Source of the DNA: an uncultured Clostridia bacterium
GTDB lineage: Bacteria; Bacillota; Clostridia; TANB77; CAG-508
Reading direction: 5' to 3'
Length of the DNA stretch: 64,000 nucleotides
NCBI GenBank assembly: GCA_934133005.1
Contig: CAKPAI010000001.1
Coordinates: forward strand, 298,769 to 362,768
Shown piece by piece: positions 23,577-49,225 of the stretch. The notes beneath the pieces are model-generated. The model did not search any database. It was not told where the DNA came from and worked only from the letters and a program-made list of their open reading frames with translations. The position numbers were made by a program, and so were the translations under genes. The first letter of the stretch is position 1, and each line of letters begins with the position of its first letter.

Positions 23577-23579
23577 CTT

Positions 23580-27308: not shown

Positions 27309-27454
27309 TATTACACATTCCCTTCAATAGTTTTATATTTTCATTTTTTGTCTTTTGTGTAATATTCTCATTTTTATATTAGCAATTCTATCATATTTTT
27401 CCAATTTTGTATATATTTTCCACAAATTTGCCAGACGTCTGGCAAATTCAATTT

Positions 27455-28774: not shown

Positions 28775-28958
28775 AACTATTGTAATTTTTTCAATATCGT
28801 TTTATTATTTCCATCAGAAGCAGATAAAAATTTTATCTTCGCTTATGTACATTGAAAACTAAATAGTCCAGATATACACAAATAAAGAAACTTCTACCTG
28901 GCTAACGTGATGTAAAGGGGTAGCTCTCCTAGATGGAGGGAATGGAAACAGAACCATT

Positions 28959-29234
28959 ATGGTATTAAATACATATATAGGGACGTTAAACAAGAAAAAA
29001 AAATTTTTGAGGAAAGGAGAACAAATACCTATGAGAAGTACATTTAAAACAAACGAAGAATTACCTGCAACATTGTCAGCAACAGATATTAGTAAATACT
29101 TAGGAATTTCGAAAGCTAATTCATATCAATTAATGAATCGTTCAGATTTTCCTACACTTAAACTTGGTAAACGAAAATTAGTACCAAAAGATAAATTTTT
29201 AATATGGGTAAATAACAATACAAATGTTATTTAG
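28959..29234 (+). CDS. Excisionase-family HTH DNA-binding protein (probable true start ~29031, MRSTFK...)
   Basis: LSATDISKYLGISKANSYQLMNRSDFPTLKLGKRKLVPKDKFLIWV, typical excisionase/HTH_17-like. RBS gaggaaaggagaacaaatacctATG before internal Met. Confidence 0.65.
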   Translation: MVLNTYIGTLNKKKKFLRKGEQIPMRSTFKTNEELPATLSATDISKYLGISKANSYQLMNRSDFPTLKLGKRKLVPKDKFLIWVNNNTNVI

Positions 29235-29246
29235 AAGGAGTAACTT

Positions 29247-31172
29247 ATGGAAGAAAATATGAATAAAAAAAATAATATTCAGGTAAATGCTTTAAATGTT
29301 GGCACAGAGAAAGCATCTTCTAAATATTATTCTTATCAAAATGATTCTACTGATATTATACAAGCAAATACAAATAAATTCAATAAAAATCAAGAAAATT
29401 CTTTAAGTTCTCTATTTGAAAATACACCTTATGAAATAATTGATGGTTCTTTATTTAAGGTTACAAATAAAAAAGGAAATAAAGTTTATCAAAAATTATC
29501 AAACTTTGTTCCTTATTTAAAAAATGAAACAATTATTGATGATGGTGTAGATGTAAAAAGATATTTGAGCATGGAAGGTAAACATGCTAATGGCAAAAAT
29601 CTGCCTTCCATTAGAATATCTGCAAATGATTTTAACAATATGAATTGGATAACAAAAAATTGGGGCTTACATTGTAATATTGAAACAGGACAAACTGTAA
29701 AAGATTGTATTAGACATGCTATTCAATGTACTGCAACTAATATAAAAATTGAACATATCTATTGTCATACTGGTTGGAGAAATATTAATAACAAATTAGT
29801 ATTTCTATGTAATAGTTTATATTTAGATAAAAATATTGAAACAAATGTTGAACTAGAAGGAAAATTATCACGTTATTGCTTAACAGATGTTACAGAAAGA
29901 AATATCGATGAAGATTTAAAATGTATAAGGAAATTACTAGATACTGAATTTATACCACATAAAATCATATTACCTTTAATTGCTTTAGCATTTCTATCTC
30001 CATTAAATCATTTTCTAGAAATAGCTGATTGTGAACCAAAATTAGTATTATTTTTAATTGGAAAAACTGGAGCTAAGAAAAGCACTCTTGCTTCTCTTAT
30101 ATTATCATTCTTTGGAGATTTTACTAATACTGATTTACCTATATCTTTTAGAGATACTGCTAATAGTATTATTGCACAATCATTTATCTTAAAAGATGTT
30201 TTAACTGTAATTGATGACTACCACCCTTCTACTAAATTAGATGAATTATCTATGAATAAAACAGCACAAGTCATTATGAGATCTTATGGCGATAGAATAG
30301 GAAAAAATAGATTAAATTGTGATAGTACATTAAAAGTATCCAAACCACCTAGAGGAAATGCCATCATTACTGGAGAATCAACACCAGATATTTCCGAAAG
30401 CGGTACTGCTAGATATATCAGTATTGAATTACAGCCAAACGACATTGATGTTTCGAAATTAACCAAATTACAAGAATTATCAAGAAATGGATCTTTTAAA
30501 TCTGTTATGAGTTTTTATATTAGATGGATTTATCAATATGTGAATGGTGTTTATACAGAAAAAGAATATGCAAATAAATTAAGAGAAGATTTTATAAATA
30601 ATAGAAAAATCCTAATTACAGAATTAACTAATAGAAATATAACTTTTCATCCTAGAATACCCGAAGCATTATCTTGGCTCTTTATAGGTTTTGAGAAATT
30701 TTTAAACCTTATGAATAATGCAAATGTTCTTACAAATGATGATTTACAATTTTTAGTTTCCGAATTTGCAGATATTTTAATAAATCTAGCAATATCTCAA
30801 TCTAAAACTGTTACTGAAGATAATCCTAGTATGAAGTTTGTTACTAAATTAAATTCATTGTTAGAAAGCAAAATTGCAAGAGTTCAAGATATAAGAACTT
30901 ATCAATATGCAGGTGGAAATGGCTTTATTGGTTATGAAGATGATATGTACTATTATTTAATATCAAGCATATCTCATAAATTAGTAAAAAAACTTTGTGA
31001 TGAACAAGGAGAATTGTTCTCAGTAAGTGAGAGAACTCTATTAAAACACTTAGATGAAGATGGATTTATAGAAACTTCAAAAGATAGTAGAACAAAATTA
31101 CTACGAGTTGGTGGTAGTCCACAAAGATTTATATGGTTAAAAAAAGATAAATTTAGGAGTATTATACAGTAA
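29247..31172 (+). CDS. Primase/helicase-type replication protein (SF3/D5-like NTPase; DUF927 / P4-primase-C-like)
   Basis: Walker A LFLIGKTGAKKSTLASL. Walker B LTVIDDYHPS. 641 aa. Located between xis-like gene and mob genes as in SaPI/IME-type elements. Confidence 0.55.
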   Translation: MEENMNKKNNIQVNALNVGTEKASSKYYSYQNDSTDIIQANTNKFNKNQENSLSSLFENTPYEIIDGSLFKVTNKKGNKVYQKLSNFVPYLKNETIIDDGVDVKRYLSMEGKHANGKNLPSIRISANDFNNMNWITKNWGLHCNIETGQTVKDCIRHAIQCTATNIKIEHIYCHTGWRNINNKLVFLCNSLYLDKNIETNVELEGKLSRYCLTDVTERNIDEDLKCIRKLLDTEFIPHKIILPLIALAFLSPLNHFLEIADCEPKLVLFLIGKTGAKKSTLASLILSFFGDFTNTDLPISFRDTANSIIAQSFILKDVLTVIDDYHPSTKLDELSMNKTAQVIMRSYGDRIGKNRLNCDSTLKVSKPPRGNAIITGESTPDISESGTARYISIELQPNDIDVSKLTKLQELSRNGSFKSVMSFYIRWIYQYVNGVYTEKEYANKLREDFINNRKILITELTNRNITFHPRIPEALSWLFIGFEKFLNLMNNANVLTNDDLQFLVSEFADILINLAISQSKTVTEDNPSMKFVTKLNSLLESKIARVQDIRTYQYAGGNGFIGYEDDMYYYLISSISHKLVKKLCDEQGELFSVSERTLLKHLDEDGFIETSKDSRTKLLRVGGSPQRFIWLKKDKFRSIIQ

Positions 31173-31174
31173 TA

Positions 31175-31370
31175 TTTTCTGTTACAACTGTTACATTTTT
31201 CTAAATTGCATATGGTTGTAAGAAAATATTAGTAACAATTATCTAAAATTATCTGATACAAAAATGAAACAGAATTTGTTACAACTTGTATCAGATATGT
31301 AACAAATAACGAAAGTTTATAATCAACTTATATAACTATATTCTACAGTGTTGTAACAGATGTAACAGTA
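31175..31370. promoter_or_regulatory. Candidate oriT: six copies of TGTTACA/TGTAACA in direct and inverted arrangement upstream of mobC
   Basis: tgttacaactgttaca (~31179), ttgttacaacttgtatcagatatgtaacaa (~31275, inverted pair), tgttgtaacagatgtaacag (~31348). Confidence 0.45.
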
Positions 31371-31444
31371 TTTTTATATATAATACTTCACTTCTTGCTA
31401 AATTTAAGCTATTCTTTGTAGTTTTTTATAGGCAAGATTCCTAA

Positions 31445-31921
31445 TTGTATAGACATACAATTAAATGGTTGCGTTATTGCTTTAGCAATTACGAACCATT
31501 ATATGTGGCTTTGCCACTAGATTTTACACCCAAAATTCACTTTGGGTGTTTTAATTTTGGGAGAACCCAAACCCCTTTTACAAATTTTAGAGAAAGGAAC
31601 TTAATATATATGAGAAAAAATAATAAACAAATTAATTTTAGAGTTAGTGAAAAAGATTATAACTATATAAAAAGGCAATCTGAAAAAGCTAATATAACTT
31701 TAACTGACTATTTAAAATATTCAGCACTTAACAAGAACATATATGTAATTGATGGATTAGATGATGCTTCAAGAGAACTTGCTAAAATTGGAAATAACTT
31801 AAATCAGCTAACTAGACTATGTCATCAAGGTGTTATTACTTGTTTAGATTTAAGTGAGATTAGAGAGCAGGTGAAACATATATGGCAGTTATTAAATTTA
31901 CTAACTCCAAATCAACTTTAA
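31445..31921 (+). CDS. mobC: MobC-family relaxosome accessory protein (probable true start ~31610, MRKNNKQINFRVSEKD...)
   Basis: FRVSEKDYNYIKRQSEKANITLTDYLKYSAL ... LAKIGNNLNQLTRLCH matches conserved MobC (ribbon-helix-helix start and IGNNLNQ box). RBS agaaaggaac. Confidence 0.7.
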   Translation: MYRHTIKWLRYCFSNYEPLYVALPLDFTPKIHFGCFNFGRTQTPFTNFRERNLIYMRKNNKQINFRVSEKDYNYIKRQSEKANITLTDYLKYSALNKNIYVIDGLDDASRELAKIGNNLNQLTRLCHQGVITCLDLSEIREQVKHIWQLLNLLTPNQL

Positions 31922-33132
31922 AACATATTATAAATTACATAACACAAGATGCTAAAACTACTACTGAATTAATTACAGGAAAAGATTGTACTTCTGACAA
32001 TGCCTTAGAGGAAATGCAAACTGTAAAAAATTTATATAACAAGACAACTGGCAGACAATATATTCATTTAGTACAATCTTTTTCCCCTAACGATAATTTA
32101 AGTTATGACAAAGCACATGAAATTGGATTAGAACTTGCAAAACAATATAAAGGTTTTCAAGTATTAGTAGCAACTCATACTGACAGAGAACATGTACATA
32201 ATCATCTCGTAATAAATTCTGTATCTTTTGAAGATGGTAAGAAATTTCAACAAAGTAAAAAAGATATGGAAAAAATAAAAATACATTCTAATGAATTATG
32301 TGCAAAAAATGGACTTTCCACTATTTCATTAAAAGGAAATTCAAAGGTTAGTAATAGTTTAACACTAAAAGAATATCATGTAGCAAATAAAGGTCAAAGT
32401 TGGAAAATGCAACTAATAAATGCCATTGACTATTCAATAGAAAATTCATTAACTAAAAAAGATTTCATATCAAATATGAATAGTTTAGGGTATCAAGTTA
32501 ATTGGACTGATACAAGAAAAAGTATAACTTACACTACTCCAACTGGAATGAAGTGTAGAGATAATAAATTATATGATATTAAATATTTAAAGGAGACTAT
32601 GCAAAATGAGTTTAATAGAAAATTTAAAAGAGAAAAATCAAATACCACAGCAAACACAAATGAAAGCAGAGTTTTACACAGTTCAACCAGAAACGTGGAT
32701 AACTCTTTTCAAGTGGATAGAAGATACGAAGGACAAAATCAAAAATATGGAATACAAAATGGACAAGCAAATTTCAATGGCAGACATTCTAAATACACTA
32801 AAAAAGGAACTTACAGAAACAATAAGAATACATCTGGAAGTTCAGATGATGAAATATCAAGAGGAATTGAAAGAACTACAAAAGATAAAATGGAAAAATA
32901 TATTCAAATGGATACCAATAGGTATTGTAATAGGTATTTTAGTAACCGTTCTCTGGATACATTAGTATCCCTTGCCTATTTATTTGAAAATAGACAATAT
33001 AATCAAAATAAACCTAAAAGAACAATAAGAAGTTTTAGGAGTTTAAGCAAACAAGCTAAAAAAGAATGGATTATGAAGCATAAATATTCAAGTAGTTTTG
33101 ATTGGTTTGAAGAAGATGAATGGGAAATGTAA
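31882..33132 (+). CDS. Relaxase/mobilization nuclease (MobA/VirD2-like domain, HxH motif)
   Basis: LKHIINYITQD N-terminal region. HTDREHVHNHLVINSV three-His metal-binding motif of relaxases. Overlaps mobC 3' end. Confidence 0.7.
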   Translation: MAVIKFTNSKSTLKHIINYITQDAKTTTELITGKDCTSDNALEEMQTVKNLYNKTTGRQYIHLVQSFSPNDNLSYDKAHEIGLELAKQYKGFQVLVATHTDREHVHNHLVINSVSFEDGKKFQQSKKDMEKIKIHSNELCAKNGLSTISLKGNSKVSNSLTLKEYHVANKGQSWKMQLINAIDYSIENSLTKKDFISNMNSLGYQVNWTDTRKSITYTTPTGMKCRDNKLYDIKYLKETMQNEFNRKFKREKSNTTANTNESRVLHSSTRNVDNSFQVDRRYEGQNQKYGIQNGQANFNGRHSKYTKKGTYRNNKNTSGSSDDEISRGIERTTKDKMEKYIQMDTNRYCNRYFSNRSLDTLVSLAYLFENRQYNQNKPKRTIRSFRSLSKQAKKEWIMKHKYSSSFDWFEEDEWEM

Positions 33133-33150
33133 AAAATATTTTTAACAATA

Positions 33151-33372
33151 TTGACTTTTGACTGTCATAATGTTATTATATTTATGGCAGTCAAAAAGGA
33201 GGTGGATATGACTGAGAAAAAGCTAGGTCGTCCAACTGATAATCCTAAGAATACTAAATTAACTGTTCGTGTAGATGCGGAAACATTAGAAATATTAGAA
33301 AAATATTGTAAGAAAGAAAATATATCTAAAATGGAAGGTATTCGTAGAGGAATTAGAAAATTGGACAAATAA
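33151..33372 (+). CDS. Small ribbon-helix-helix/CopG-like DNA-binding protein (start likely ~33208, MTEKKLGRPT...)
   Basis: KKLGRPTDNPKNTKLTVRVDAETLEILEKYCKKENISKMEGIRRGIRKL. RBS aaaaaggaggtggatATG. Confidence 0.5.
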   Translation: MTFDCHNVIIFMAVKKEVDMTEKKLGRPTDNPKNTKLTVRVDAETLEILEKYCKKENISKMEGIRRGIRKLDK

Positions 33373-33383
33373 AAAAGGAAATA

Positions 33384-33806
33384 GTGTTTCTGACAGTCAA
33401 TCTTATTACACTATTCCCTAGCAATACTACTTCGAAAGTAGAATTACATGAATATTATATCACATGCAATCTTCTACTTTCAACAAAAATGAAAATTTTA
33501 ATGAAAGAAGGAGGATTTTTTATGCCTATCAATCAAAATTTATTTGAAGAAGAACTTGATGAGTTCTTTAATAATCTAATCAATTCATATCTAAACTATT
33601 TATCACAAGAAGATGAAATTTATAAGAAGCTTGGTAAAAATAAAAATTCTTGTATTGAAAATTTTCTAAAGGACTTTCCTAATACTAATGATTCTTTAGA
33701 AAAACTTATCAATTATATTTATTTAGAAAATGAATATGAATCTGATGTCTTATATAGACAAGGTTTTATTGATTGCTTTAACTTTCTAAAACTTCTTGAT
33801 TACTAA
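33384..33806 (+). CDS. Hypothetical acidic protein (probable start ~33522, MPINQ..., 95 aa)
   Basis: RBS gaaggaggattttttATG. No motif recognised. Immediately precedes integrase. Confidence 0.45.
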   Translation: MFLTVNLITLFPSNTTSKVELHEYYITCNLLLSTKMKILMKEGGFFMPINQNLFEEELDEFFNNLINSYLNYLSQEDEIYKKLGKNKNSCIENFLKDFPNTNDSLEKLINYIYLENEYESDVLYRQGFIDCFNFLKLLDY

Positions 33807-35109
33807 ATCAAGGAGGTTCAATATGTCAAAAAGAGGTCAAAATGAAGGCAGTATTAGACAAAGAAAAGATGGTACTTGGGAAGCTAGATATACTGTAGGT
33901 GTAAAAGAAAATGGAAAACCTAACAGAAAATCTGTATATGCTAAAACTAGAAAAGAAGTTAAAGATAAATTAAATGCCATTTTGTTATCTCTAAAGAATG
34001 GAACTTATACTAATTCAAATAATATATTATTCATAGATTGGCTTAGCAAATGGCTTGAAACTTATGCTAAGCCTAATATAAAACTTGCTACATATACAAG
34101 TTATGAAACATATATACGAGGTCATTTGAAACCTTATTTTTCTAATATAAAATTACAATCTGTTTCAGCAGAAATGCTACAAAAATTCTTTAATTATAAA
34201 CAGAACAATGGTAGATTAGATAATCGTGAAGGTGGCTTATCAGCTAAAACTTTGAAAAATATGTATAATATGCTACATGCTTCATTTAAACAAGCATATA
34301 TTAATGGATTAGTTCAAACAAATATCGTTGAAACTATAAGAACTCCTAAAATTTTCAGAAAAGAAATGAGAGTTTTAACTAGAGAAGAACAAAATAAATT
34401 AATTCATGTTGCTAGAAATTATAGATTAGGAATTGTTGTTATATTAGATTTATTTACAGGTATGAGATTGGGTGAAATCCTTGCTTTGAGATGGTGTGAT
34501 GTTGATTTAAAAGGTCAAAATTTAATTGTTAGAAATAGTATTAAGAGATTATCTACCCATGAGAAAGCATCTAAAAATCAGAATAAAACTAAATTAATTT
34601 TAGATACTCCAAAATCTCAAACAAGTTATAGAGAAATACCGCTTCTCTCTCCTATTGTTAAAGAATTAAAAACTCACAAGCAAAAGCAAAAAATTGAAAT
34701 CCAATTAGCTGGTAAATCCTATATAAATAAAGATTTTCTATTTTGTAATCAAATTGGAGAACCTTATGATCAGAAAACTTTTTGGAAAGAGTATTCTTTA
34801 ATGTTAATAGATGCCGGTTTACGAGATAAAAAAGAAAAACCAATTAGAAATAAAATTAAAAAGAATATAAAATCTAAACCCAAATCTCATGCTGATAAAG
34901 TTCAAGTTACATTCCATACTTTAAGACATACTTTTGCAACTAGAGCAATTGAGCAAGGTATGGAAATTCCTGTACTTAGTAAAATTCTAGGACATGCTGA
35001 TATAAGTACCACTTTGAATAAATATTGCCATGCTATTCCAGATAGGAAGCGTGAAAATATGGAGAAAATTGAGTGTTTATATGATGATAGCCTAGATGGT
35101 GGAATCTAG
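33796..35109 (+). CDS. int: Tyrosine site-specific integrase 2 (probable ATG start 33823, MSKRGQNEGSIRQRKDGTWEARY...)
   Basis: AP2-like arm-binding N-terminus. C-terminal HTLRHTFATRAIEQG...LGHADISTTLNKYCH. Strong RBS caaggaggttcaatATG. Lys-rich insertions relative to integrase 1. Confidence 0.85.
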   Translation: MITKSRRFNMSKRGQNEGSIRQRKDGTWEARYTVGVKENGKPNRKSVYAKTRKEVKDKLNAILLSLKNGTYTNSNNILFIDWLSKWLETYAKPNIKLATYTSYETYIRGHLKPYFSNIKLQSVSAEMLQKFFNYKQNNGRLDNREGGLSAKTLKNMYNMLHASFKQAYINGLVQTNIVETIRTPKIFRKEMRVLTREEQNKLIHVARNYRLGIVVILDLFTGMRLGEILALRWCDVDLKGQNLIVRNSIKRLSTHEKASKNQNKTKLILDTPKSQTSYREIPLLSPIVKELKTHKQKQKIEIQLAGKSYINKDFLFCNQIGEPYDQKTFWKEYSLMLIDAGLRDKKEKPIRNKIKKNIKSKPKSHADKVQVTFHTLRHTFATRAIEQGMEIPVLSKILGHADISTTLNKYCHAIPDRKRENMEKIECLYDDSLDGGI

Positions 35110-35135
35110 GCTATTTTGTGTAAAATACTATAATA

Positions 35136-35561
35136 TTAAATTTCATCTGGAGTAAAAACTTCAATTCCATTTTCTATTAAAAGGTCTGCCAATATACCAT
35201 TTCCATCTATTAATTTATTATCAAAATTTCCACTATAAATTTTATTAACTCCACAAGACGGGCTTCTTGGCTGAAGTATCGCTTTATTGATATTTAAGCT
35301 TTTAGCTAATTTTAATACTTCTATTGCTCCTCTTTCAAAATTTTCTGTAACATCATTTCCTTCATTATCAATTGCATATCTTTTTCCATCAATAACTTTA
35401 AGTTCCACAGGTTTTCTTGGTGTCTTTAACCCTCCTAGTTGTTCTGGACAAATTGGTATAGCTTTTCCTTCCTTTACTAAATCAAAAATCTTTTTATTAA
35501 AATTATTGCCTCCACTATATTTGCAATTTATTCCTACTAAACAAGCACTTACAAGTATCAT
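35136..35561 (-). CDS. DUF523 (YbbK-like) family protein
   Basis: MILVSACLVGINCKYSGG...PICPEQLGGLKTPRKP...PRSPSCGV conserved Cys pattern of DUF523. Confidence 0.6.
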   Translation of the reverse strand: MILVSACLVGINCKYSGGNNFNKKIFDLVKEGKAIPICPEQLGGLKTPRKPVELKVIDGKRYAIDNEGNDVTENFERGAIEVLKLAKSLNINKAILQPRSPSCGVNKIYSGNFDNKLIDGNGILADLLIENGIEVFTPDEI

Positions 35562-35953
35562 TACATTAGACCTCTTTCTACTAAATTTGGTATAACATGT
35601 TCTCCTAAAATACTACCTACTTTTATTCCATTTTTCTTATAATCTTTATCAATCCATATTGCTTCTTTAATTTCATTTTTGCATTTTATTTTTCCTTTTA
35701 TTTCAGCTAAATATGTTTGGACATGAATAGGCTCATCTGAAAAACAAGCAATATCATCATATCCACCTATAAATTCAGCATTTACTAATTCTACATTTAG
35801 CTCTTCATCTAGTTCTCTTTTTAATGTTTCAAAATCTGTTTCATTTCCTTCACGTTTTCCTCCTGGAATTATACATTCTTCCCTATTATTCTTTTTTCTT
35901 TGAACAAGGACTTTTTTATCTTTTAAAATTACTCCACCAACTTTATCTATCAT
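35561..35953 (-). CDS. Nudix hydrolase (MutT-like)
   Basis: Nudix box GGKREGNETDFETLKRELDEELNV. Confidence 0.8.
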   Translation of the reverse strand: MIDKVGGVILKDKKVLVQRKKNNREECIIPGGKREGNETDFETLKRELDEELNVELVNAEFIGGYDDIACFSDEPIHVQTYLAEIKGKIKCKNEIKEAIWIDKDYKKNGIKVGSILGEHVIPNLVERGLM

Positions 35954-36017
35954 ATTTTTATTACCTTTCTATCATTTTATACTTTTAAATCAGAACATTC
36001 TTTCTTCTTATTTCTTT

Positions 36018-36824
36018 TTATAATTCAATTTCATCCAAATCATTTGGAACATACACATTACCATTAAAATATTCTTTTGCTTCTTTAGTAAATAATTCTT
36101 TTCTTGTTTCTATATTATTATCGATGCAATGCCATAATAATAAGTTCTTTATATTTAAAGTATTCATTGCAATAGAAACATCTTTTACTGTAGAATGATT
36201 CTTTTCATGTGGTTTTACCTTATATTTGTCTTTTTCTAAACACATTGCTTCATGTAGTACCCAATCTGAATTTTCTATTTTTGAATACACATTTTTACTA
36301 CAAGGAACGTCTCCTAAAAAAGCTAACGTTTTTCCAGAATTTAGGATTATCTTAAATCCATACTGAATACATTCGATAGATTCTGTATCAATTGCTTCTA
36401 CTTCATAACCTATAATATTAAATTTTTTACCATTATCACAAAAATAATATTTCACAATTTCTTTATATAAATCTTCGTGTGCTTTATGAAATGTTGCACT
36501 AATAAACATATCAATTATCTGTTTTATTTCTTCAGTACAATATATATTTAATATACCATCATAATTACTTTTTCTATGTTGTTGCATGATATATCTTAAA
36601 AGTGGTATTATTCCCCATAAATGATCTATGTGTTTATGAGATATAAAAATATCATGTATTTTATTTATATTAATATTTTTGGCTTTTAAATGATTTAATA
36701 TTTGATTACCACTTCCAGTATCAATCAATAAGTAATTACCGTTTGTATTTTCAAGTAACGCACTTAAACTATAACAATTTATTGTTAGTCCACTACCAGT
36801 TCCTAAAACTATTAACTTTTCCAT
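36018..36824 (-). CDS. Metallo-beta-lactamase-fold hydrolase
   Basis: HKHIDHLWG (HxHxDH) motif. GTGSG N-terminal start typical of MBL/RNase Z-like fold. Confidence 0.75.
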   Translation of the reverse strand: MEKLIVLGTGSGLTINCYSLSALLENTNGNYLLIDTGSGNQILNHLKAKNININKIHDIFISHKHIDHLWGIIPLLRYIMQQHRKSNYDGILNIYCTEEIKQIIDMFISATFHKAHEDLYKEIVKYYFCDNGKKFNIIGYEVEAIDTESIECIQYGFKIILNSGKTLAFLGDVPCSKNVYSKIENSDWVLHEAMCLEKDKYKVKPHEKNHSTVKDVSIAMNTLNIKNLLLWHCIDNNIETRKELFTKEAKEYFNGNVYVPNDLDEIEL

Positions 36825-36842
36825 ATTTTTTTTACCTTTTTC

Positions 36843-37295
36843 TTAATCTTTTAAAATATCAACAATATCAATAGGTGCAACTAAATTATTATTTTGGTTA
36901 ATTACTGCTGTTCTAACATAATTTCCTCTTAACATACTTTCCATTTGATTAACTATTTCATCATAATCAAACCATTTAACATCTAAAATTTCTTCTTTAT
37001 CAAACTCAATATTTTCATTAATAAGTTTAGCATTAAAAACAATCATTACAAATAAATCGTCTTCTAAAATTCTATTAGCAACATAGCAAACTCCGTCTAG
37101 TTTAACATCACAACCTGTTTCTTCTTTTATTTCTCTAATTGCTCCTTGCTCTAAACTCTCGTTAAAATCTAAATGTCCTGCTGGAAAATTCCATTTTTCA
37201 TAACATTTTTTCTTCGCTTCTTGTACTAACAAATATTTTCCTTCTTTTTCTATAATTCCACCTACTATTACTTTCATAATTTTGCTTTCCTCCAA
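36843..37295 (-). CDS. Nudix hydrolase
   Basis: Nudix box GHLDFNESLEQGAIREIKEETGCD. Confidence 0.8.
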   Translation of the reverse strand: MEESKIMKVIVGGIIEKEGKYLLVQEAKKKCYEKWNFPAGHLDFNESLEQGAIREIKEETGCDVKLDGVCYVANRILEDDLFVMIVFNAKLINENIEFDKEEILDVKWFDYDEIVNQMESMLRGNYVRTAVINQNNNLVAPIDIVDILKD

Positions 37296-37306
37296 TTATA
37301 TTTCTT

Positions 37307-37837
37307 TTAAATATCTAAATAATACTCAAGTATTCTTCTATCTCTTAAAACAACAAATTTTGTTGCATAAACATCTTCATATTGTGAGTCTTTTAAATCA
37401 TTTATGCAATTTTGTATTAATTCTAATGCCTCAATAGGCTCAACCCATAATAATTTTGCTCCTTCAACTTTTTCTTTTTGCGTCAAATTTAATTTTTGAG
37501 TATCTTCAATAACCTTTGATACAAAAATATATGAGATTTGTTTAAAATTGTTTTTATATTTGTATTCTTCAGTAACACCTAAATATTTTATTATCTCAAC
37601 TTTGCATCCTGTTTCTTCTGCAACTTCACGATAAAAAGCATCTTTTGGATTTTCATTTTCTTCAATGCCACCTCCTGGCAATTTATATTCGTGTTTATTT
37701 GCTTTATTAAAAATTGCAATTTTTCCATCTTCTCGAATTACTATTCCTCTTGCACCTTTTCTTAATTGTGGCTTTTCCATATCACAAAATTTAAGTCCAA
37801 AGTCATTATCTGTTATTTTTGTAATTAATTTTTCCAT
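37307..37837 (-). CDS. Nudix hydrolase
   Basis: Nudix box PGGGIEENENPKDAFYREVAEETGC. Confidence 0.8.
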   Translation of the reverse strand: MEKLITKITDNDFGLKFCDMEKPQLRKGARGIVIREDGKIAIFNKANKHEYKLPGGGIEENENPKDAFYREVAEETGCKVEIIKYLGVTEEYKYKNNFKQISYIFVSKVIEDTQKLNLTQKEKVEGAKLLWVEPIEALELIQNCINDLKDSQYEDVYATKFVVLRDRRILEYYLDI

Positions 37838-37884
37838 TTAACTCCTCCTTAATATTATTATTTTTTAAATAATAATTTTAAACA

Positions 37885-38406
37885 TTACAAACTTCTAATA
37901 TATTGGAACAATTTTTCAAATTCTTCTTTATGTATTAAAAGTCCCTCTGCTTTTTCTTCCACCATTTTTTCTAGATCCTTATATAAAACATACTTAACCT
38001 CTGATACTTCATCATCTTCAAAAGTGTATTCTTCTATTTTTTTATTACATCTTAATAAATACACATAAGCAAATTCCATATTTTTAGGATTTTTTGTGCT
38101 TTTAATCGTTGCAATATATTGTAAATCTTTTTCTTCTGCTTCAACTCCTAATTCTTCTTTTAGTTCCCTTATTGCTCCATCAATTACAATTTCTCCTGCT
38201 TTTATATGTCCTGCTCCAGATATGTCCCAGCAATTAGGATGTGATTTCTTATTTGCACTTCTTTTTTGTAATAATAATTCATTTTTGTCATTTATAATCC
38301 AAACATGTGCTGTTCTATGAAAATCGCCTTCTTCATGTGCTTTCCCCTTTTCTTTTATTTGTCCTGTTGGATTATTATTTTCATCAAATATATCTATATA
38401 TTCCAT
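37885..38406 (-). CDS. Nudix hydrolase (paralog of 41639-42163)
   Basis: Nudix box GAGHIKAGEIVIDGAIRELKEELGV. N-terminal MEYIDIFDENNNPTGQ similar to MSEFWDIYDENRNKTGR of the 41639 gene. Confidence 0.8.
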   Translation of the reverse strand: MEYIDIFDENNNPTGQIKEKGKAHEEGDFHRTAHVWIINDKNELLLQKRSANKKSHPNCWDISGAGHIKAGEIVIDGAIRELKEELGVEAEEKDLQYIATIKSTKNPKNMEFAYVYLLRCNKKIEEYTFEDDEVSEVKYVLYKDLEKMVEEKAEGLLIHKEEFEKLFQYIRSL

Positions 38407-38493
38407 AAGCTCTCCTCTTTCCTTATTGCTATTACTATATCACAAATTCCTTAATTATTCCATAGTTTACCATTAATTCTATTACTTTTCATC

Positions 38494-38519
38494 GTGGTAG
38501 GGGTATTTTACTGGGGTAA
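38494..38519 (+). repeat. G-rich direct repeat G2 (GGTAGGGGTATTTTACTGGGGTAAA)
   Basis: 14/14 GGTAGGGGTATTTT plus second GGGGTA, matching 23551-23574. Confidence 0.55.
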
Positions 38520-38597
38520 AGTACAAAAATAAGACCACTTATTTTCTTGTAGTCTTACTCCTATCTATATTCTATAATTTAATTTTTATTTACTTGT

Positions 38598-38610
38598 TTC
38601 GGGTTATGAG
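38598..38610 (+). repeat. att-core-like repeat copy 3 (TTCGGGTTATGAG, 13 bp; 14 with following A)
   Basis: Identity with the 3' 13 nt of the 17-bp core at 1821 and 23421. ~80 bp to the right of G2 repeat, mirroring the core-to-G1 spacing at the other end. Confidence 0.5.
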
Positions 38611-38702
38611 ATTTCATAAAACAAATTTAAATACTAACATAATATCTTGAAAATATAAGAAATATGTTATAATCAAAGTTAAATTACTAAAAAAAAAGCA
38701 CA

Positions 38703-39308
38703 CTAACTATTGCTTTTTCCACTTGTAGCTATCGTATAAGCTAGTAAAACTAATATAATTTGATATAGTATTATATTTACTCCAAAATTAATTATATTCG
38801 GTATCTTTACACAAACAAATCCTAATAATCCAGCTATTGCAAAGCATAATATTCCAGAAAAAACATTATTAAGAGTAAGTCTTTTTCCTTTATTTTTATC
38901 TTTAGAAAATGGCATTATTATTCCAACTAGAATAAATAACCATGAGCCTGCTAAAAATTTTACAATATTCCTTCCTTTATTAGTTTCCTTTTGAAAAATA
39001 TTATTTGCATAATTATTACTTTGATTATTCATATCTTCTAAAATACTATTATATTCATCTTCTATTCTTTGGTCTTTTTTTATTTTATTTCCGTCTATAC
39101 TAACTATTTTTTGAATTATTTCTATTCTTTTATTTGCTCTATTATAATATAAAAAATTTGCATCAATAATTGGATATAATACTATAGCTAACATTATTAA
39201 AACAATAAAAATCCATGCAATAGTTTTAAATCCTTTCTTCTCATTTATTAATTTTTCAAATAATTTGCTAAACATCTCCTTCATTTCATCATCCCCATAT
39301 TTTATCAT
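38703..39308 (-). CDS. Hypothetical multi-pass membrane protein
   Basis: 201 aa with at least four hydrophobic helices. No motif. Confidence 0.45.
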   Translation of the reverse strand: MIKYGDDEMKEMFSKLFEKLINEKKGFKTIAWIFIVLIMLAIVLYPIIDANFLYYNRANKRIEIIQKIVSIDGNKIKKDQRIEDEYNSILEDMNNQSNNYANNIFQKETNKGRNIVKFLAGSWLFILVGIIMPFSKDKNKGKRLTLNNVFSGILCFAIAGLLGFVCVKIPNIINFGVNIILYQIILVLLAYTIATSGKSNS

Positions 39309-39323
39309 TATCTATTACAATTA

Positions 39324-39707
39324 TTACTCTTTATACTCCCACAACCCCAATTTTCCTTTTGTTTCTATTTGCTTATCAAATACTTCTACATTTTCTAACT
39401 TCCATCCATAATTTTCTTTAAAAGAAGAGTCTGTGTATATATCTTTATTTTCTTTTAATAAAATTTCCTTAAATTCTGTTGACATTTCTATACAATCAAC
39501 TAATTTAACTTTTCCTAATATTTTTTCTGATGGTAAGTCCTCCGGAATATATTTTGATAATCTTTTCATTGCTTCTTTATCTATTCCTTTACCTGCATGT
39601 ATTAGTAATTCTCCTCTATAATTAGTTTTCCAACTTCTAAATTCAAGCCTTTTATCTCCTTGCATTATTAATGTTGCCCAAGGTTGTTTTATTGTTAATA
39701 CCTTCAC
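39324..39707 (-). CDS. ASCH-domain protein
   Basis: MKVLTIKQPWATLIMQGDKRLEFRSWKTNYRGELLIH. The IKQPWA...G.K..E.R start is typical of ASCH. Confidence 0.6.
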   Translation of the reverse strand: MKVLTIKQPWATLIMQGDKRLEFRSWKTNYRGELLIHAGKGIDKEAMKRLSKYIPEDLPSEKILGKVKLVDCIEMSTEFKEILLKENKDIYTDSSFKENYGWKLENVEVFDKQIETKGKLGLWEYKE

Positions 39708-39837
39708 AAATTTTCTCCTTATTTATAACTTTGCTTTTTTCCCTCACACAAAATTCTAATGGCATTCCCATTGCATCTCCTACAACTAATCCAATTATTC
39801 CATTCTTCGAGTCAATTAACCTATTATTTTCTTTCAC
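39652..39837 (-). pseudogene. Possible remnant of ADP-ribosylglycohydrolase N-terminus (61-aa ORF overlapping ASCH gene)
   Basis: NGIIGLVVGDAMGMPLEF resembles the conserved G.LLG.AVGDALG.PVEF start of the ADP-ribosylglycohydrolase family. ORF is too short and overlaps the neighbouring gene. Confidence 0.25.
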
Positions 39838-40256
39838 TATATCACCACTCCATTTGTATGATCAATTTCATGCTGGATTATTTCAGCAACAAATCCTGAA
39901 AATTTTTCATGCTTTTTGTTAAAATTTATATCCAAATAGTCTACTTCAATCTCTTGGTATCTTGTACATTTTCTTTCACCAATTAGTGACAAGCAGCCTT
40001 CTTTTGTTTGATATTCGTCTTTTTTATTTGTAATAATGGGATTTATCATTACAAAATCATATAATCCAGCAGATACACAAATTACTGCCTTGTTATAGCC
40101 TATCATATTCGCAGCAAGACCTACACATCTATCTTTATTAGCATTAAGTGTGTCTAATAAATCATTTGCAATGAATTTATCTTTTTCTGTTACTTTTTCT
40201 GCTTTTTTTGATAAAAACATTACATCTTTTACAATATTTCTTACCATATAACTCAC
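39837..40256 (-). CDS. def: Peptide deformylase
   Basis: GLAANMIGYNKAVI (GxGxAAxQ-like), EGCLSLIGE (EGCLS), IQHEIDHTNG (QHExDH) motifs. Confidence 0.85.
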   Translation of the reverse strand: MSYMVRNIVKDVMFLSKKAEKVTEKDKFIANDLLDTLNANKDRCVGLAANMIGYNKAVICVSAGLYDFVMINPIITNKKDEYQTKEGCLSLIGERKCTRYQEIEVDYLDINFNKKHEKFSGFVAEIIQHEIDHTNGVVI

Positions 40257-40311
40257 CTTACCTAAAAATTATATCAAATTCAAATAATACTATAAAATTT
40301 TTAAGAACTTC

Positions 40312-40851
40312 TTACTTCATTTCATATTTTTGTAAAACATTTCCGTCAACATCTTTTAATATTATCTTATTTTCATCAATTACACTATAGCTATGTGCAG
40401 AATTACACTTTGGAAGTGAAATAGAGCCTGGATTTGCAAAAACAAATCCTTCTTTTTCTTGAATAAATCCTTGATGAATATGACCATACATCATAACATC
40501 AAAATCATCATATGGAATATTCTCAATATTATATTTATGTCCATGTGTAAAGTAAAACTTCTTTCCATTTATATCCATTATTATATGGTCATTAAATTTG
40601 AACTCTGATATCATCTCATCTACTTCTGCATCACAGTTTCCTCTAATTACTAATAATTTTTCTTTCATTTCATTTAGTATTTTAGCAACTCTCATTGGTT
40701 CATACTCTTGACTTAATTCATTTCTTGGTCCATGATAATACAAATCACCTAATAACACTATCTTATCTGGATTTTCTTTCTCCACTATCTCTTTTATTTT
40801 TTCTGTATAATAACCTGATCCATGTATATCTGATATAACTACTACTTTCAT
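40312..40851 (-). CDS. Metallophosphoesterase (YfcE-like phosphodiesterase)
   Basis: VVVISDIHGS, LGDLYYHGPRN, GNCD, GHIHQ calcineurin-like phosphoesterase motifs. Confidence 0.75.
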   Translation of the reverse strand: MKVVVISDIHGSGYYTEKIKEIVEKENPDKIVLLGDLYYHGPRNELSQEYEPMRVAKILNEMKEKLLVIRGNCDAEVDEMISEFKFNDHIIMDINGKKFYFTHGHKYNIENIPYDDFDVMMYGHIHQGFIQEKEGFVFANPGSISLPKCNSAHSYSVIDENKIILKDVDGNVLQKYEMK

Positions 40852-40886
40852 ATTAAAATTTCTCCTTTTCTTAGTATTATAATATT

Positions 40887-41441
40887 TTATTTAGCTAAAA
40901 TTTTAAACATATTATCAAAATACTCTAATATTTCTCTTACATATTTTTCTTCTTTTAAATTCATCTGTTCTAGTTCTTTTAATTGTTCCTTAGAGTACTT
41001 TTTTCTATCTGCTTTTTCAATTATATAATGTACAAAAGCTTCAGAGAATACATCAGCAAATTCGTTTGATTTACAATTAATATCTTTATTTACTTCGCTC
41101 TCACCTAATAATTCTTCATATATTTCCATGAACTTTTTCAAAAACTCTTTATAATTTTTTATTAAGAAATCATTTAATACTAATCCAAATTGTTTTAAGA
41201 TAATTTCTTCCTTGCATCTTTCAAATGATTTGTTCAATAAGTACACAAAAAATTCTCCACTTTCCCTTTCATATTTTATTGTAGCTTTATTTTCATTTAC
41301 CACAAACTTTATTTCAATTTCATTTTTTTCTAGTACATCAAAAAGTTCACATTCTTCCTTGATAATATTTTCTACTTTTATAATATCTTCTTTATTTATA
41401 ATATATTTTTCTTCGTTACAATTCTTTATTTTTTCTTTCAT
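40887..41441 (-). CDS. Hypothetical protein (184 aa, acidic/helical)
   Basis: Clean ORF with no motif. Confidence 0.4.
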   Translation of the reverse strand: MKEKIKNCNEEKYIINKEDIIKVENIIKEECELFDVLEKNEIEIKFVVNENKATIKYERESGEFFVYLLNKSFERCKEEIILKQFGLVLNDFLIKNYKEFLKKFMEIYEELLGESEVNKDINCKSNEFADVFSEAFVHYIIEKADRKKYSKEQLKELEQMNLKEEKYVREILEYFDNMFKILAK

Positions 41442-41638
41442 TTTCTACCTCATAAATTTCTTAATTCTCCTAAATTTTATTATCTTTCGAGCCTAAAGTC
41501 AATATTATATTTTGTACCAAAATAAAGTATGATTAATCTAGATAGTTTTTTACTAAATTTAATCATACTTTATCTTAATTACTTTAAATTTTTTTATAAA
41601 ACTTCCATTTAATCGCCCGTCCGACTCGCCACATGAAT

Positions 41639-42163
41639 TTATCCTAAAATTTTTAGTGCCATTTCAAAATCTTCTTTATCAAAATTTACAGATTGTACAA
41701 TTTCTTTTTCTTCATACATCTTAATAAATTTATCAATATTAACCCACATAAATTCAGTAGCTTCACCATCTGGCAAACTAATTTCTTCATTTTTTATATC
41801 TCTTCTAAATACCCAAACATCTTTAAAATCAGATAATCTTGCCCTATCTTTTTTTCTCTTAATTTCTTTTAAGAAATGTGCTTCTTCTCTTTTAAATGTA
41901 ATTCCCAATTCTTCTTTTATCTCTCGTAGCATTCCATCTAAACTTTTTTCTCCAGCAAGTACAGAACCACCACAACATTCCCACATGCCACCATATATCT
42001 TATTTTTAGCTCGTTTATCTAATAGAATCTCATCATTCATATTTAAAATAATAGCAGTTACAACTATGTGATATTCTCCATCTTTAAATTGATAAACTCC
42101 TCTTTGTGCAGTTCTTCCTGTCTTATTTCTATTTTCATCATATATATCCCAAAATTCACTCAT
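41639..42163 (-). CDS. Nudix hydrolase
   Basis: Nudix box CCGGSVLAGEKSLDGMLREIKEELGI. Confidence 0.8.
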   Translation of the reverse strand: MSEFWDIYDENRNKTGRTAQRGVYQFKDGEYHIVVTAIILNMNDEILLDKRAKNKIYGGMWECCGGSVLAGEKSLDGMLREIKEELGITFKREEAHFLKEIKRKKDRARLSDFKDVWVFRRDIKNEEISLPDGEATEFMWVNIDKFIKMYEEKEIVQSVNFDKEDFEMALKILG

Positions 42164-42267
42164 ATTTTTTCCATATAATACAGCTTTAACAACAAAATTT
42201 ATTGAAGTTGACTATTGTTAGAACGTATCTACTCTCCTTTTTCCCTAGTTTTCCACAATTATATCAC

Positions 42268-43479
42268 TTAATGTGTGAATTTTACAATAAAATGAATCAT
42301 ATCTTTATCCGTTTTCACATCTATTTTAGCATTATTATTTTTTACAATTGCAGCAGCCATAGAAAGTCCTATTCCATACCCTCCAAGTTCTCTACTTCTA
42401 GAAGTTTCTCCTCTATAAAATCTCTCAAACAACCTATTACATTCTGTTCCATCTAAATTTTCGTATGAATTTGATATTTCTAATACAGTATCCTTATTTT
42501 TTCTACATAAATCTACATTTATTTTTCCACCATCAGTTACATATTTGACTGCATTATCTAGCAAAATAGTTACTAATTCATAAATTTCATCATTTTTAGC
42601 TTCTACAATTATATTATCATCTATATTCGTATTTATTTCACTATTCTTAGACATAACTTTAAAATCATTACTAAGATTTTTTACCATATCACTAAGATTT
42701 ACCTCTTGACATTTTTCCTTTTTCTTTTTTTGCTCATCCATTCTAGCTAAACTTAACAATCTTTTTATGAGCACATCCAATCTCTTTGCTTGATTTTTTA
42801 TACTTTTTACCCATTCATCATCCTTTCCATTTTTCATTTCAAGCACTTCTGCATTTGCTAAGATAATTGCAACCGGCGTCTTTAATTCATGACCAGCATT
42901 TGTTACAAATTCTTTTTGCTGTTCTAAATTTGCAATAACATGCTTAATAATTCTTTTTGAAATAGCACTAAGTAACGCAAATACTATAACTAATGCCCCT
43001 CCAGCAACTTCACATGAATACAGTGCTAAAGTTTTTGCTTCTCTAATATATATAGTTGCATCAATTAGTACTATTAATCTTTCTTCTTCCTTTTGAACAA
43101 CTAAATATTTATAGTTTTTATAATAAGCACTATCTTTTCCTGACTCTTCAATTTTATTTGCAATCTCTTCCAAATTCTCATCATTAACAGCTATTATATG
43201 ATCCAAATTTGAAGCTGTTATTTTTCCTTCTTCATCTATCTCAATCCAAAAATACCTAATAGAATGTTCGGTTTCTTCAGTTAATATATCTGGTCTAAAA
43301 TTTTTTTGGTAACTCGGAAATTTTCCATTATTATCTGCAATCAACTTTAATAAAAAATCTAATTGTTCATTCTTTTTTACATAACTTGATACATTTATTA
43401 TAAGCAATATCCCAATTGTAACAACCGTAATTGAAAGCATTGCCATTGCCACAAGTTTTTTTTGCAATTTTTTTAGCAT
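42268..43479 (-). CDS. Sensor histidine kinase (two-component system)
   Basis: N-terminal TM, H-box NAGHELKTPVAIILANAEVLE, HATPase region with DNAVKY and GGYGIGLS (G2 box). Confidence 0.85.
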   Translation of the reverse strand: MLKKLQKKLVAMAMLSITVVTIGILLIINVSSYVKKNEQLDFLLKLIADNNGKFPSYQKNFRPDILTEETEHSIRYFWIEIDEEGKITASNLDHIIAVNDENLEEIANKIEESGKDSAYYKNYKYLVVQKEEERLIVLIDATIYIREAKTLALYSCEVAGGALVIVFALLSAISKRIIKHVIANLEQQKEFVTNAGHELKTPVAIILANAEVLEMKNGKDDEWVKSIKNQAKRLDVLIKRLLSLARMDEQKKKKEKCQEVNLSDMVKNLSNDFKVMSKNSEINTNIDDNIIVEAKNDEIYELVTILLDNAVKYVTDGGKINVDLCRKNKDTVLEISNSYENLDGTECNRLFERFYRGETSRSRELGGYGIGLSMAAAIVKNNNAKIDVKTDKDMIHFIVKFTH

Positions 43480-43488
43480 TTTTATCTC

Positions 43489-44154
43489 CTACTTTACTAC
43501 TATACTTTCAAGTACATACCCATTGTTATTTACAATTTGCACATTAGCACCTAAGGCCTCAAATTTATTTTGCAAATATGATATGTACATTGGTACTATT
43601 TTTATATTTTCATCTTTTCCCCATATACGGTTCTTTATTTCTTTTTCCCCAATTTTTTCAGACTGATTTCCCACCAAAAGTTCCATAAGTTCACTCTCCT
43701 TACTATTTAAATGAAATGATGCTTTATCAGAATATAATTCATTTTCTTCTTTATCTAAAGTTACATTTCCTATTTTTATTTTTTTAGTTCTGTTTTCATT
43801 TTTTCTAACTAGTGCTCTTATTCTTGCAAGAAGTTCATCTTTTTCAAACGGCTTTGTTAAATAGTCGTCAGCTCCTTTATCTAATCCTTCAACTTTATCC
43901 TCTGTTTCTGCTTTTGCAGTTAGCATTAGAATTGGAGTATTTATATTCTTTTTTCTGAGTTCTTCTACAACTTCTATTCCAGTCATTTTAGGCATCATTA
44001 CATCTAATATCAATATATCAAATTTTTCATTTTCTGCTATTTTTAGAGCTTCTTCACCGTTATTTGCAATTTTTACTTCATATTCACTATACTTTAAGAT
44101 TGCTCCTAATGCTCTTGTTAAATCAATTTCATCATCTGCAATTAAAACTTTCAT
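43489..44154 (-). CDS. OmpR-family response regulator
   Basis: Receiver MKVLIADDE...ILILDVMMPKMTGIEV...LTAK. C-terminal winged-helix region. 221 aa. Confidence 0.85.
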   Translation of the reverse strand: MKVLIADDEIDLTRALGAILKYSEYEVKIANNGEEALKIAENEKFDILILDVMMPKMTGIEVVEELRKKNINTPILMLTAKAETEDKVEGLDKGADDYLTKPFEKDELLARIRALVRKNENRTKKIKIGNVTLDKEENELYSDKASFHLNSKESELMELLVGNQSEKIGEKEIKNRIWGKDENIKIVPMYISYLQNKFEALGANVQIVNNNGYVLESIVVK

Positions 44155-44756
44155 TGTTTTCCTCCTATCATATTTCTTATAGTTTGCATATTTAAATCTG
44201 TTGTTGCCATATCATCTGCACATCTTCTTAATTCTTTTTCTATCAATTTTTGATTTTCTATATTTTTCTTATATTTTAATTCATGTTCTAAACTTGCCCA
44301 ACAATCCATTGCAATTGTCCTAATTTGAATTTCACATCTTACTTTGTGAATTTCTCCAATTATATCTAGGTCCATCTCTAAATTTATATGATAGCTTCTA
44401 TATCCATTTTGCTTTGGATTTTTTATATAATCTTTCTCATTTAATATTTTGATTCCAGAATATTTTTTTATAAGTTCTACAATCACATAAATATCATCTA
44501 TATAAGAACAAATAATTCTCACTCCAACACCATCATTTATTCTTTCTAATGCATTTTCTAGTGTCACTTCGATCCCTTTTCTTTTAAGTTTCTCTTTCAT
44601 ACTTTCTTCAGATTTTACTCTGCTTGTAACATATGCAATCGGATCTCTATATCCTTGTGCAATTCTATATCTTCTCATTATATCAATTCTTGATGTTAGC
44701 TCACATACGGCCCCTTCTAACACAACGATCGAATCTTTATAAAATGTATTTTCCAT
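44151..44756 (-). CDS. Small alarmone synthetase (RelA/SpoT-synthetase-domain only; RelP/RelQ-like GTP pyrophosphokinase), co-operonic with TCS
   Basis: GVRIICSY...YRSYHINLE...VRCEIQIRTIAMDCWASLEHELKYK matches the (p)ppGpp synthetase domain. Stop overlaps RR start, the relPRS-like arrangement known from streptococci. Confidence 0.75.
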   Translation of the reverse strand: MENTFYKDSIVVLEGAVCELTSRIDIMRRYRIAQGYRDPIAYVTSRVKSEESMKEKLKRKGIEVTLENALERINDGVGVRIICSYIDDIYVIVELIKKYSGIKILNEKDYIKNPKQNGYRSYHINLEMDLDIIGEIHKVRCEIQIRTIAMDCWASLEHELKYKKNIENQKLIEKELRRCADDMATTDLNMQTIRNMIGGKQ

Positions 44757-44862
44757 GTTAAATTTGTATAATCCTTTCTACATAAGATTGATTAAGATTA
44801 TATATTTTCTTTATGTTCTTTATATGAATTTTCAACAAAAAAATAGTAACCACATTTAGTGA

Positions 44863-45447: not shown

Positions 45448-45461
45448 TATCTGCTCCTTTC

Positions 45462-49185: not shown

Positions 49186-49225
49186 TTATGCAGTAAATTT
49201 GAGTTTAATGAAAGGACTAGATATT

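Follow-up and report, generated by a model that had tools for sequence, protein, structure and literature searches.

A six-gene hydrolase block carried inside a widespread mobilizable island of gut Clostridia

In Firmicutes, integrative mobilizable elements (IMEs) that combine a tyrosine integrase with a MobC/relaxase module integrate at tRNA genes. An element of this known class, carrying cargo and here called element 2, occupies positions 23438-38610 (15.2 kb) of a 64,000-nucleotide stretch of DNA (the window) from an uncultured Clostridia bacterium (GenBank assembly GCA_934133005.1, contig CAKPAI010000001.1). Element 2 resembles the Firmicutes IMEs in its size of 15 kb, its terminal tyrosine integrase, its Xis-like HTH protein, its relaxase with accessory protein and its lack of conjugation pore genes, as well as in the short direct repeats at its ends, its place in a tandem array at a shared core and its variable defence cargo. 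It differs from them in that its core is the anticodon stem-loop of tRNA-Met, that its right end brings no tRNA 3′ half and that it was never found beside an intact tRNA, whereas both the 3′ half and the intact tRNA are present in relatives whose integrases are 60% identical. A further difference is a second, integrase-proximal cargo bay holding a set of six hydrolase genes, of which an earlier note on this DNA had asked whether it is cargo or an artefact of boundary placement. Our comparison of related loci indicates that the hydrolase block is, almost certainly, real cargo carried inside a widespread mobilizable island. With a probability of about 0.6 for structure and function taken together, we read element 2 as a 15.2-kb IME carrying captured house-cleaning hydrolases that serve nucleotide-pool sanitation or salvage.

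The block consists of six minus-strand genes that succeed each other with small gaps at 35136-38406. In the direction of transcription these encode Nudix D (37885-38406, 173 amino acids, IDI/YfcD/DR0079-like subfamily), Nudix C (37307-37837, 176 amino acids), Nudix B (36843-37295, 144-150 amino acids), a metallo-beta-lactamase (MBL)-fold phosphodiesterase of the RNase Z/ELAC/YhfI clade (36018-36824, 268 amino acids), Nudix A (35561-35953, 130 amino acids, MutT/NudG-like) and, as the last gene, a TudS/DUF523-type [4Fe-4S] desulfidase (35136-35561). This gene content of four Nudix, one MBL and one DUF523 gene, their coordinates and the end of integrase 2 (int2) at 35109, all given in the earlier note, were borne out by Pfam and by the open reading frames (ORFs).

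The window has a G+C content of about 26% and carries most of its genes on the minus strand. The 13-mer TTCGGGTTATGAG occurs in it in exactly three exact copies (1825-1837, 23425-23437 and 38598-38610), all on the plus strand and in direct orientation, and none of 100 shuffles gave three matches. The first copy, absent from the earlier note's account, marks the left end of a tandem array and the left junction of element 1, while the second and third are the attL and attR cores of element 2; the window is accordingly a tandem array of element 1 (1838-23437) and element 2 (23438-38610). The window also contains a 44-nucleotide G-rich repeat, whose two copies (23521-23564 and 38466-38509) are 80% identical, and the exact 14-mer GGTAGGGGTATTTT inside it is found in the window only at 23551 and 38496. 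The G-rich and core-like repeats previously reported near 38.5 kb are present at 38496-38509 and 38598-38610, respectively. On the left, the G-rich repeat lies as GGTAGGGGTATTTTTAGGGGTA at 23551-23572 within the left arm (P′ arm, 23438-23581), which is kept in all copies of the element, and represents a putative arm-type site at which integrase or Xis might bind. On the right, it lies as GGTAGGGGTATTTTACTGGGGTA at 38496-38517 within the right arm (P arm, 38407-38597), which is kept up to the core in all copies and presumably also holds the promoter of the hydrolase block; a promoter and terminator scan of the block returned 21 sites compared to 26.7 expected and identified no promoter, the scan being uninformative in this AT-rich DNA. 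The order of the repeats, core followed by G-rich repeat at 23.4 kb and G-rich repeat followed by core at 38.5 kb, would fit the attL and attR derived from an attP with arm-type sites on both arms.

The strongest structural evidence comes from a contig of the same species (L095) that joins window positions 21779-23438 straight to 38598-49284, with 99.4% identity to the window over the latter range. The contig lacks exactly 23438-38597, so that element backbone and hydrolase block are gone together, and the endpoints of the deletion coincide with the 13-bp core (attL 23425-23437 is joined to 38598-38610). The element-2-less state was seen in two of the 23 contigs read, and the contig itself is recorded in two samples plus one further similar place. 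A misassembly across the repeat was considered and rejected because the shared sequence amounts to only 13-14 bp, far below the k-mer sizes of assemblers. The earlier note had named strains that lack element 2 and retain the block next to the gene at 38703 as the outcome that would speak against its placement of the block; the contig without element 2 is also without the block.

Copies of element 2 in other genomes delimit the same interval. An int2 protein identical to that of the window is listed for 766 blocks of public assemblies. Ten of these loci were compared; one of them (L087) has the window's own arrangement and the nine others are informative. At all nine loci homology extends from 27394 to 38610-38612 at 98.8-99.2% identity and stops at the core. 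On the left side only 23425-23581, the core and left arm, is common to the copies (88-96% identity in L083-L092; 81% in L090, which has no exact copy of the core), and other genes stand in the place of 23582-27393. Another 13 loci came from a second scan, made with the right end and core of element 2; in these the block is 98.9-99.8% identical wherever enough upstream sequence is present. Across both sets of loci at least 11 different right flanks follow the core, and the homology of all element copies ends at 38610-38613, or at 38619 in one of them (L121). At three loci (L084, L116 and L090) the nucleotide identity to the window is only 75-82% for the neighbouring chromosomal def/ASCH genes, whereas it reaches 99.1% for the segment from MBL to Nudix D. 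The block therefore has the history of the element and not that of the host, and the comparison of related genomes that the earlier note had proposed shows it travelling with the mobC/int module into hosts with clearly diverged flanks.

The alternative raised in the earlier note treats the block as ordinary chromosome and the repeats at 38.5 kb as left over from an older insertion; element 2 would then stop just after int2. In its favour, the block agrees in strand and GC skew with the chromosomal genes on its right, comparable hydrolase genes (Nudix E, a metallophosphoesterase and ASCH) occur beyond the end of element 2, and homology to chromosomal genes of related species starts 3 nucleotides after the int2 stop codon. 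Among the copies compared, however, a break at 35110-35135 was never seen save for an internal replacement in one variant (L084 and L121). Searching the window for a further direct copy of the int2/DUF523 junction (35080-35220), which an element ending there should have, gave nothing convincing, and nothing at the left end of the element; a 16-nucleotide match inside a gene at 14722 and several AT-rich 10-12-mers were judged to be chance. Together with the joint loss of block and backbone in the deleted contig, the homology ending at the core and the disparity between a 99% identical block and its 75-82% identical flanks, these observations refute the boundary artefact, to which we assign next to no probability. 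Exact-protein look-ups with DUF523 and with the 134-amino acid protein of the left flank returned only occupied sites, and no fully empty attB for the whole array.

The results define a 15-kb mobilizable island that is very widespread in human-gut Clostridia and has two cargo bays and a 13-bp target derived from tRNA-Met. They also show that hydrolase genes of ordinary metabolic appearance can be mobile even when they lie on the strand of the host genes and have a host-like skew, and they advise caution in calling island boundaries from the position of the integrase alone.

Integrating elements can capture adjacent host genes, as in the specialised transduction of gal and bio by phage lambda or in the accretion of genomic islands. 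On the chromosomes of the clade, small hydrolase genes (Nudix, HAD, HD, metallophosphoesterase, ASCH, NT5C and ITPase-like) stand in long arrays on the same strand. Arrays of this kind are seen in the window at 38611-42163, in the right flanks of two element copies (L083 and L084) and in two sets of homologous loci (L003 and L097), and in several species the att site of the island adjoins them. In five of the loci found (L097-L101), an 87% identical MBL homologue (P0003) stands in the order Nudix C-like (86%), Nudix B-like (84%), MBL and Nudix D-like (76%), the first three being colinear with element 2 (84-87% amino acid and 85.6% nucleotide identity). Around them, HAD, HD, flavodoxin-like, acetyltransferase and further Nudix genes form a long array on the same strand, and no integrase or relaxase was found within 10 kb of them. 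Nudix A and DUF523 occur as an adjacent pair in two other loci (L003 and L004; 92% and 89% amino acid, 89.5% nucleotide identity) inside an array of HD, NT5C, HAD, Nudix, peptidase S51 and aldo-keto reductase genes, and it is here that the DNA homology begins 3 nucleotides past the int2 stop codon. These loci stem from a scan of GTDB species representatives with DUF523, which did not recover the window's own species, showed little synteny and is informative only for the origin of the Nudix A-DUF523 pair. A more distant MBL homologue (62%) lies between rbfA/truB/ruvB/queH and polA. Judged from these sequence comparisons, the now mobile block is a mosaic, its segments deriving from the chromosomal small-hydrolase arrays of the clade. 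Its resemblance to lambda-type gene capture consists in 85-92% identity to chromosomal genes of related species and in its likeness to the hydrolases that flank attB in several hosts. In contrast to a lambda-type capture, the position of the block, within the arm repeats and bounded by int and the P arm, is not one that a single aberrant excision would give.

All four Nudix proteins match PF00293/NUDIX at 41-71 bits (cutoff 21), and their neighbours in the PDB are generic. In the translations the Nudix box GX5EX7REUXEEXGU is canonical and complete in Nudix B, C and D, while its last G is N in Nudix A. The DUF523 protein matches PF04463 at 152.6 bits (cutoff 34.7) and aligns over its full length with the TudS structure 6Z92 (E 6.4e-23), with C7, C38 and C103 falling on the three cluster-binding cysteines. 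TudS enzymes desulfurate thiouracils and recycle 4-thio-UMP (PMC10611767), and the same activity is predicted for the block protein, which differs from TudS in residing on a mobile element and adjoining an integrase. No protein of the block scored above threshold for any NCBIfam family.

The MBL protein, matched by Pfam Lactamase_B_2/Lactamase_B, contains the metal motif HxHxDH as HKHIDH at residues 63-68, in which 62 homologues show no variation at H63, D67 and H68 and hardly any at H65, and also HEA/HST-like motifs. The best fold matches of its AF2 model (pLDDT 92.7) in the PDB are the arylsulfatase 8GYG, RNase Z 1Y44, YhfI 6KNT, the ELAC homologue 1ZKP and ZiPD 2CBN (TMq 0.77-0.82; 1Y44, also a sequence match at E 7.8e-9, with TMq 0.79, 6KNT and 1ZKP with TMq 0.77-0.79). 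By sequence as well as by fold it is thus most like RNase Z/ELAC1 and Bacillus subtilis YhfI. Unlike RNase Z, however, it remains below the NCBIfam cutoff (NF000801, 111 compared to 252 bits) and is about 40 residues shorter at the tRNA-binding arm (query residues 111-163 correspond to 107-202 of the 1Y44 chain). As this arm segment is missing, processing of pre-tRNA is unlikely, and the protein is more likely to be a phosphodiesterase of small molecules or oligonucleotides than a tRNA processing enzyme.

In the explanation that we favour, int2, probably aided by the HTH_17 protein and by the G-rich repeats of both arms, would recombine the two cores to give an excised circle, which the MobC/relaxase pair would render transferable through the conjugation machinery of another element. 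Going by family membership, the Nudix enzymes would most likely carry out pyrophosphohydrolysis of non-canonical or surplus nucleotides, the RNase Z/YhfI-like MBL protein would cleave nucleotide phosphodiesters and TudS would desulfurate thiouracil or 4-thio-UMP. The block would accordingly be a passenger or a trait of mild benefit to the host and not a dedicated anti-immunity device. The state of the genes in about seven element lineages bears on this. In one lineage (L086/L089) Nudix A has a stop at codon 38 and Nudix C a frameshift caused by a one-nucleotide indel, in another (L088/L092) Nudix D has a stop at codon 48, and in the L084/L121 variant DUF523 and Nudix A are lost, while MBL and Nudix B are intact throughout. 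Single genes of the block are therefore dispensable for the spread of the element, at least in the short term. As the copies are 99% identical, their divergence is too small for meaningful ratios of non-synonymous to synonymous substitution rates (dN/dS).

Several points weigh against this explanation. The MBL-Nudix B-Nudix C-Nudix D segment is present in every int2 element sampled while cargo bay 1 turns over quickly, which could mean that the block serves the element itself; the recent spread of a single 99%-identical lineage could equally have caused this constancy. The bay that holds the block is the position at which relatives carry defence genes, and the activities of the six enzymes are predicted from family membership only. 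The explanation also does not account for the position of a chromosomal segment between int2 and the arm repeats. Finally, the attP junction expected of a circle, TTTATTTACTTGT-TTCGGGTTATGAG-AAATGGAATGCATTT with further sequence on either side, was not found as an exact match in one scan of metagenome contigs, which rarely capture such junctions in assembled form, so that excision is deduced from the presence/absence polymorphism only.

The earlier note had pointed out that Nudix and MBL-fold enzymes on mobile elements can act in anti-defence by breaking down immune signalling nucleotides. Applied to the block, this suggestion would have the MBL and the four Nudix proteins degrade immune signals such as cyclic nucleoside monophosphates, cyclic oligonucleotides and ADP-ribose (ADPR)-derived messengers and thereby aid the establishment of the element against CBASS, Pycsar, Thoeris or type III CRISPR systems. 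Beyond the constancy of the block and the conflict genes that relatives carry in its bay, this suggestion can draw on the CBASS cyclase and 2TM effector encoded by the neighbouring element 1 and on the membership of the MBL protein in the broad class II phosphodiesterase/RNase Z clade that includes Apyc1, the anti-Pycsar enzyme of phage SBSphiJ, which is related to MBL phosphodiesterases and RNase Z (PMC9117128). With Apyc1 the protein shares the MBL fold, the HxHxDH di-metal site, a length of about 250-270 residues, the absence of the long RNase Z arm and the YhfI/RNase Z clade, and it has weak matches to Pfam Apyc1, NF041851 and the structures 7T28 and 7U2S. These matches are, however, far below the family thresholds (Pfam PF23023 23.1 bits compared to a cutoff of 50, over residues 5-73 only; NCBIfam NF041851 47.9 compared to 400 bits, aligned end to end), and the Apyc1 structures 7U2R and 7U2S rank only 34th and 47th in the fold search (TMq 0.70), after the cellular RNase Z, YhfI and ELAC structures. 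Viral structures fit worse still (TMq at most 0.63), and phage genomes gave only matches of the N-terminal 70 residues to SBSphiJ-type genes, with the exception of a 38% full-length match in an unannotated 6-kb faecal record. Degradation of the Pycsar signal is moreover reported not to be general among MBL phosphodiesterases (PMC9117128), the near relatives of the MBL protein are chromosomal and not phage-borne, five of the six genes have their closest homologues in non-mobile chromosomal arrays, and stop codons or a frameshift have inactivated Nudix A, C or D in two of the about seven lineages. The evidence thus does not specifically support a counter-defence role of the block; we consider such a role unlikely, and captured house-cleaning cargo the more likely explanation. 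Were the role real, the degradation of nucleotide signals would extend from phages to mobilizable islands.

A more specific and, in our estimate, yet more doubtful version holds that the block is a "signal-scrubbing" kit, in which the MBL and multiple Nudix enzymes hydrolyse cyclic-nucleotide and ADPR-derived messengers on entry into a cell and TudS perhaps acts on thiolated nucleotides. It would explain why the block is constant and the defence bay fast-changing, and, as a multi-enzyme anti-defence set that degrades nucleotides and was recruited from house-cleaning genes of the host, the kit would be the first described on an IME. Reconstitution of NAD+ in the manner of phage NARP1/2 was rejected as a candidate, the Adps/Namat and Nampt/Nmnat domains being absent from the block and from the rest of element 2. 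The hydrolases might also serve defence or exclusion by depleting or altering nucleotide pools (dNTPs, NAD or modified nucleotides) against phages or competing elements, given that the remaining cargo of the element consists of defence genes and that PADLOC gave a match to its candidate family PDC-S07 for each of the four Nudix proteins (35-59 bits). PDC-S07 is, however, a generic Nudix profile from which any Nudix protein would receive such scores, for which reason the assignment was rejected; the MBL and DUF523 proteins have no PADLOC match, the block contains no sensor or regulator gene, and its homologues lie in housekeeping neighbourhoods. We regard a defence role as improbable and less likely still than a counter-defence role.

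Read from the left end of element 2, the attL core and left arm are followed by the variable bay, DUF6076, HTH_17, a 641-amino acid protein, MobC/relaxase, RHH, a small ORF, int2, the hydrolase block, the right arm and the attR core. Cargo bay 1 holds in the window a 1242-amino acid KAP-family P-loop NTPase (23580-27308, minus strand; Pfam KAP_NTPase 1.8e-34, PADLOC PifA/QatA) and in other copies a Peptidase_C14 trio, AbiEii or Mrr-nSTAND, with homology breaking at 23581 and 27394. The first backbone gene encodes a DUF6076 protein (27455-28774, minus strand; PF19553) and is about 98% identical at the nucleotide level in all copies. The remaining backbone genes are on the plus strand. A small HTH_17/AlpA-like DNA-binding protein identified by Pfam (28959-29234) is a putative excisionase or regulator, and the 641-amino acid protein (29247-31172), kept in all copies and without Pfam or NCBIfam match, is possibly replication- or primase-like. 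The mobilization module (31445-33132) comprises a NikA/MobC-like protein (31445-31921; NikA-like 1.1e-17, MobC 3.1e-10) and a MobA/VirD2-type relaxase (31882-33132; Relaxase 3.3e-36); the origin of transfer (oriT), presumed to lie in the gap 31173-31444, was not located in element 2. A small CopG-like RHH protein (RHH_1) and an ORF of 94-140 amino acids, both conserved (33151-33806), precede the tyrosine integrase int2 (33823-35109, 428 amino acids; Phage_integrase 1.3e-24 and SAM-like N-terminal domains). A Pfam scan found no genes for a type IV secretion system (T4SS) or coupling protein among the ORFs of element 2, and as a relaxase is present and secretion and coupling genes are absent, the element is an integrative mobilizable element. 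It accordingly combines a recombinase, att direct repeats with presence/absence polymorphism, a relaxase without T4SS and occurrence in different hosts and at different sites.

Relatives with 60-65% identical integrases share the backbone and carry a 945-949-amino acid AAA_21 ATPase between int and the right end, accompanied in one lineage by AbiEii/AbiEi. The interval between int and attR therefore serves the family in general as a second cargo bay, which in the int2 lineage is filled by the hydrolase block. The bay can also be exchanged in part. In the variant mentioned above (L084, 11298-14410, and L121), the stretch with DUF523 and Nudix A (35117-36004) is replaced by five genes encoding a 104-amino acid ORF, PHP, a metallophosphoesterase, a 115-amino acid ORF and HAD, with breakpoints 7 nucleotides past the int2 stop codon and just before the MBL stop codon.

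The target of the island can be traced to tRNA-Met, as the 13-bp core is identical to the anticodon stem-loop of this tRNA. A tRNA-Met(CAT)-like 3′ half with T arm, acceptor stem and CCA, as read from the sequence, lies directly before the attL core (23390-23424, minus strand) and is at the same time the right end of element 1 and the left flank of element 2; a degenerate stretch resembling a tRNA 3′ half precedes the core copy at 1825. ARAGORN found no complete tRNA in the window, and beside the core neither the window nor any of ten related loci has more of tRNA-Met than a 3′ half. A related element, in contrast, sits in a complete tRNA-Met(CAT) with the same 13-nucleotide core (L106, 10238-10340; L107, 14217-14300) and brings a tRNA 3′ half at its own right end, which element 2 does not.

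Element 1 is a 21.6-kb island (1838-23437) with the same 13-bp core and an integrase, int1, at its right end (21824-23017). As int1 is only 26% identical to int2, two integrase families use one core derived from tRNA-Met. On other contigs the right end of an int2 element abuts a homologue of the left end of element 1 (1825-2426), and int1-like genes are also found on the left. Directly upstream of int1, at 19734-21578, PADLOC identified a type I CBASS-like pair of an oligonucleotide cyclase (PDLC00796, E 1.9e-163) and a 2TM effector (PDLC00696, E 4.6e-51). A run of defence-type genes at 2486-14991 encodes a 926-amino acid AAA_30/UvrD_C helicase, an HTH-Fic protein, an Mrr_cat nuclease, a 1313-amino acid fusion of ResIII helicase and Eco57I methylase, and a 330-amino acid partner protein. 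Both elements contain a DUF6076-type protein (17734-18783 and 27455-28774) with a C-terminal CxxC...YC...C motif, encoded divergently from an HTH gene, which looks like a conserved module of the island family.

To the right of element 2, the further Nudix gene at 41639-42163 to which the earlier note had drawn attention was confirmed by Pfam. The ADP-ribosylglycohydrolase-like remnant that it had placed at 39652 corresponds to a 61-amino acid ORF (39652-39837) with an N-terminal match to PF03747; the match exists but is weak, staying below the cutoff (21.1 compared to 26.2 bits) and covering profile positions 2-25 only. Probably the remnant of a gene, this ORF overlaps the beginning of ASCH.

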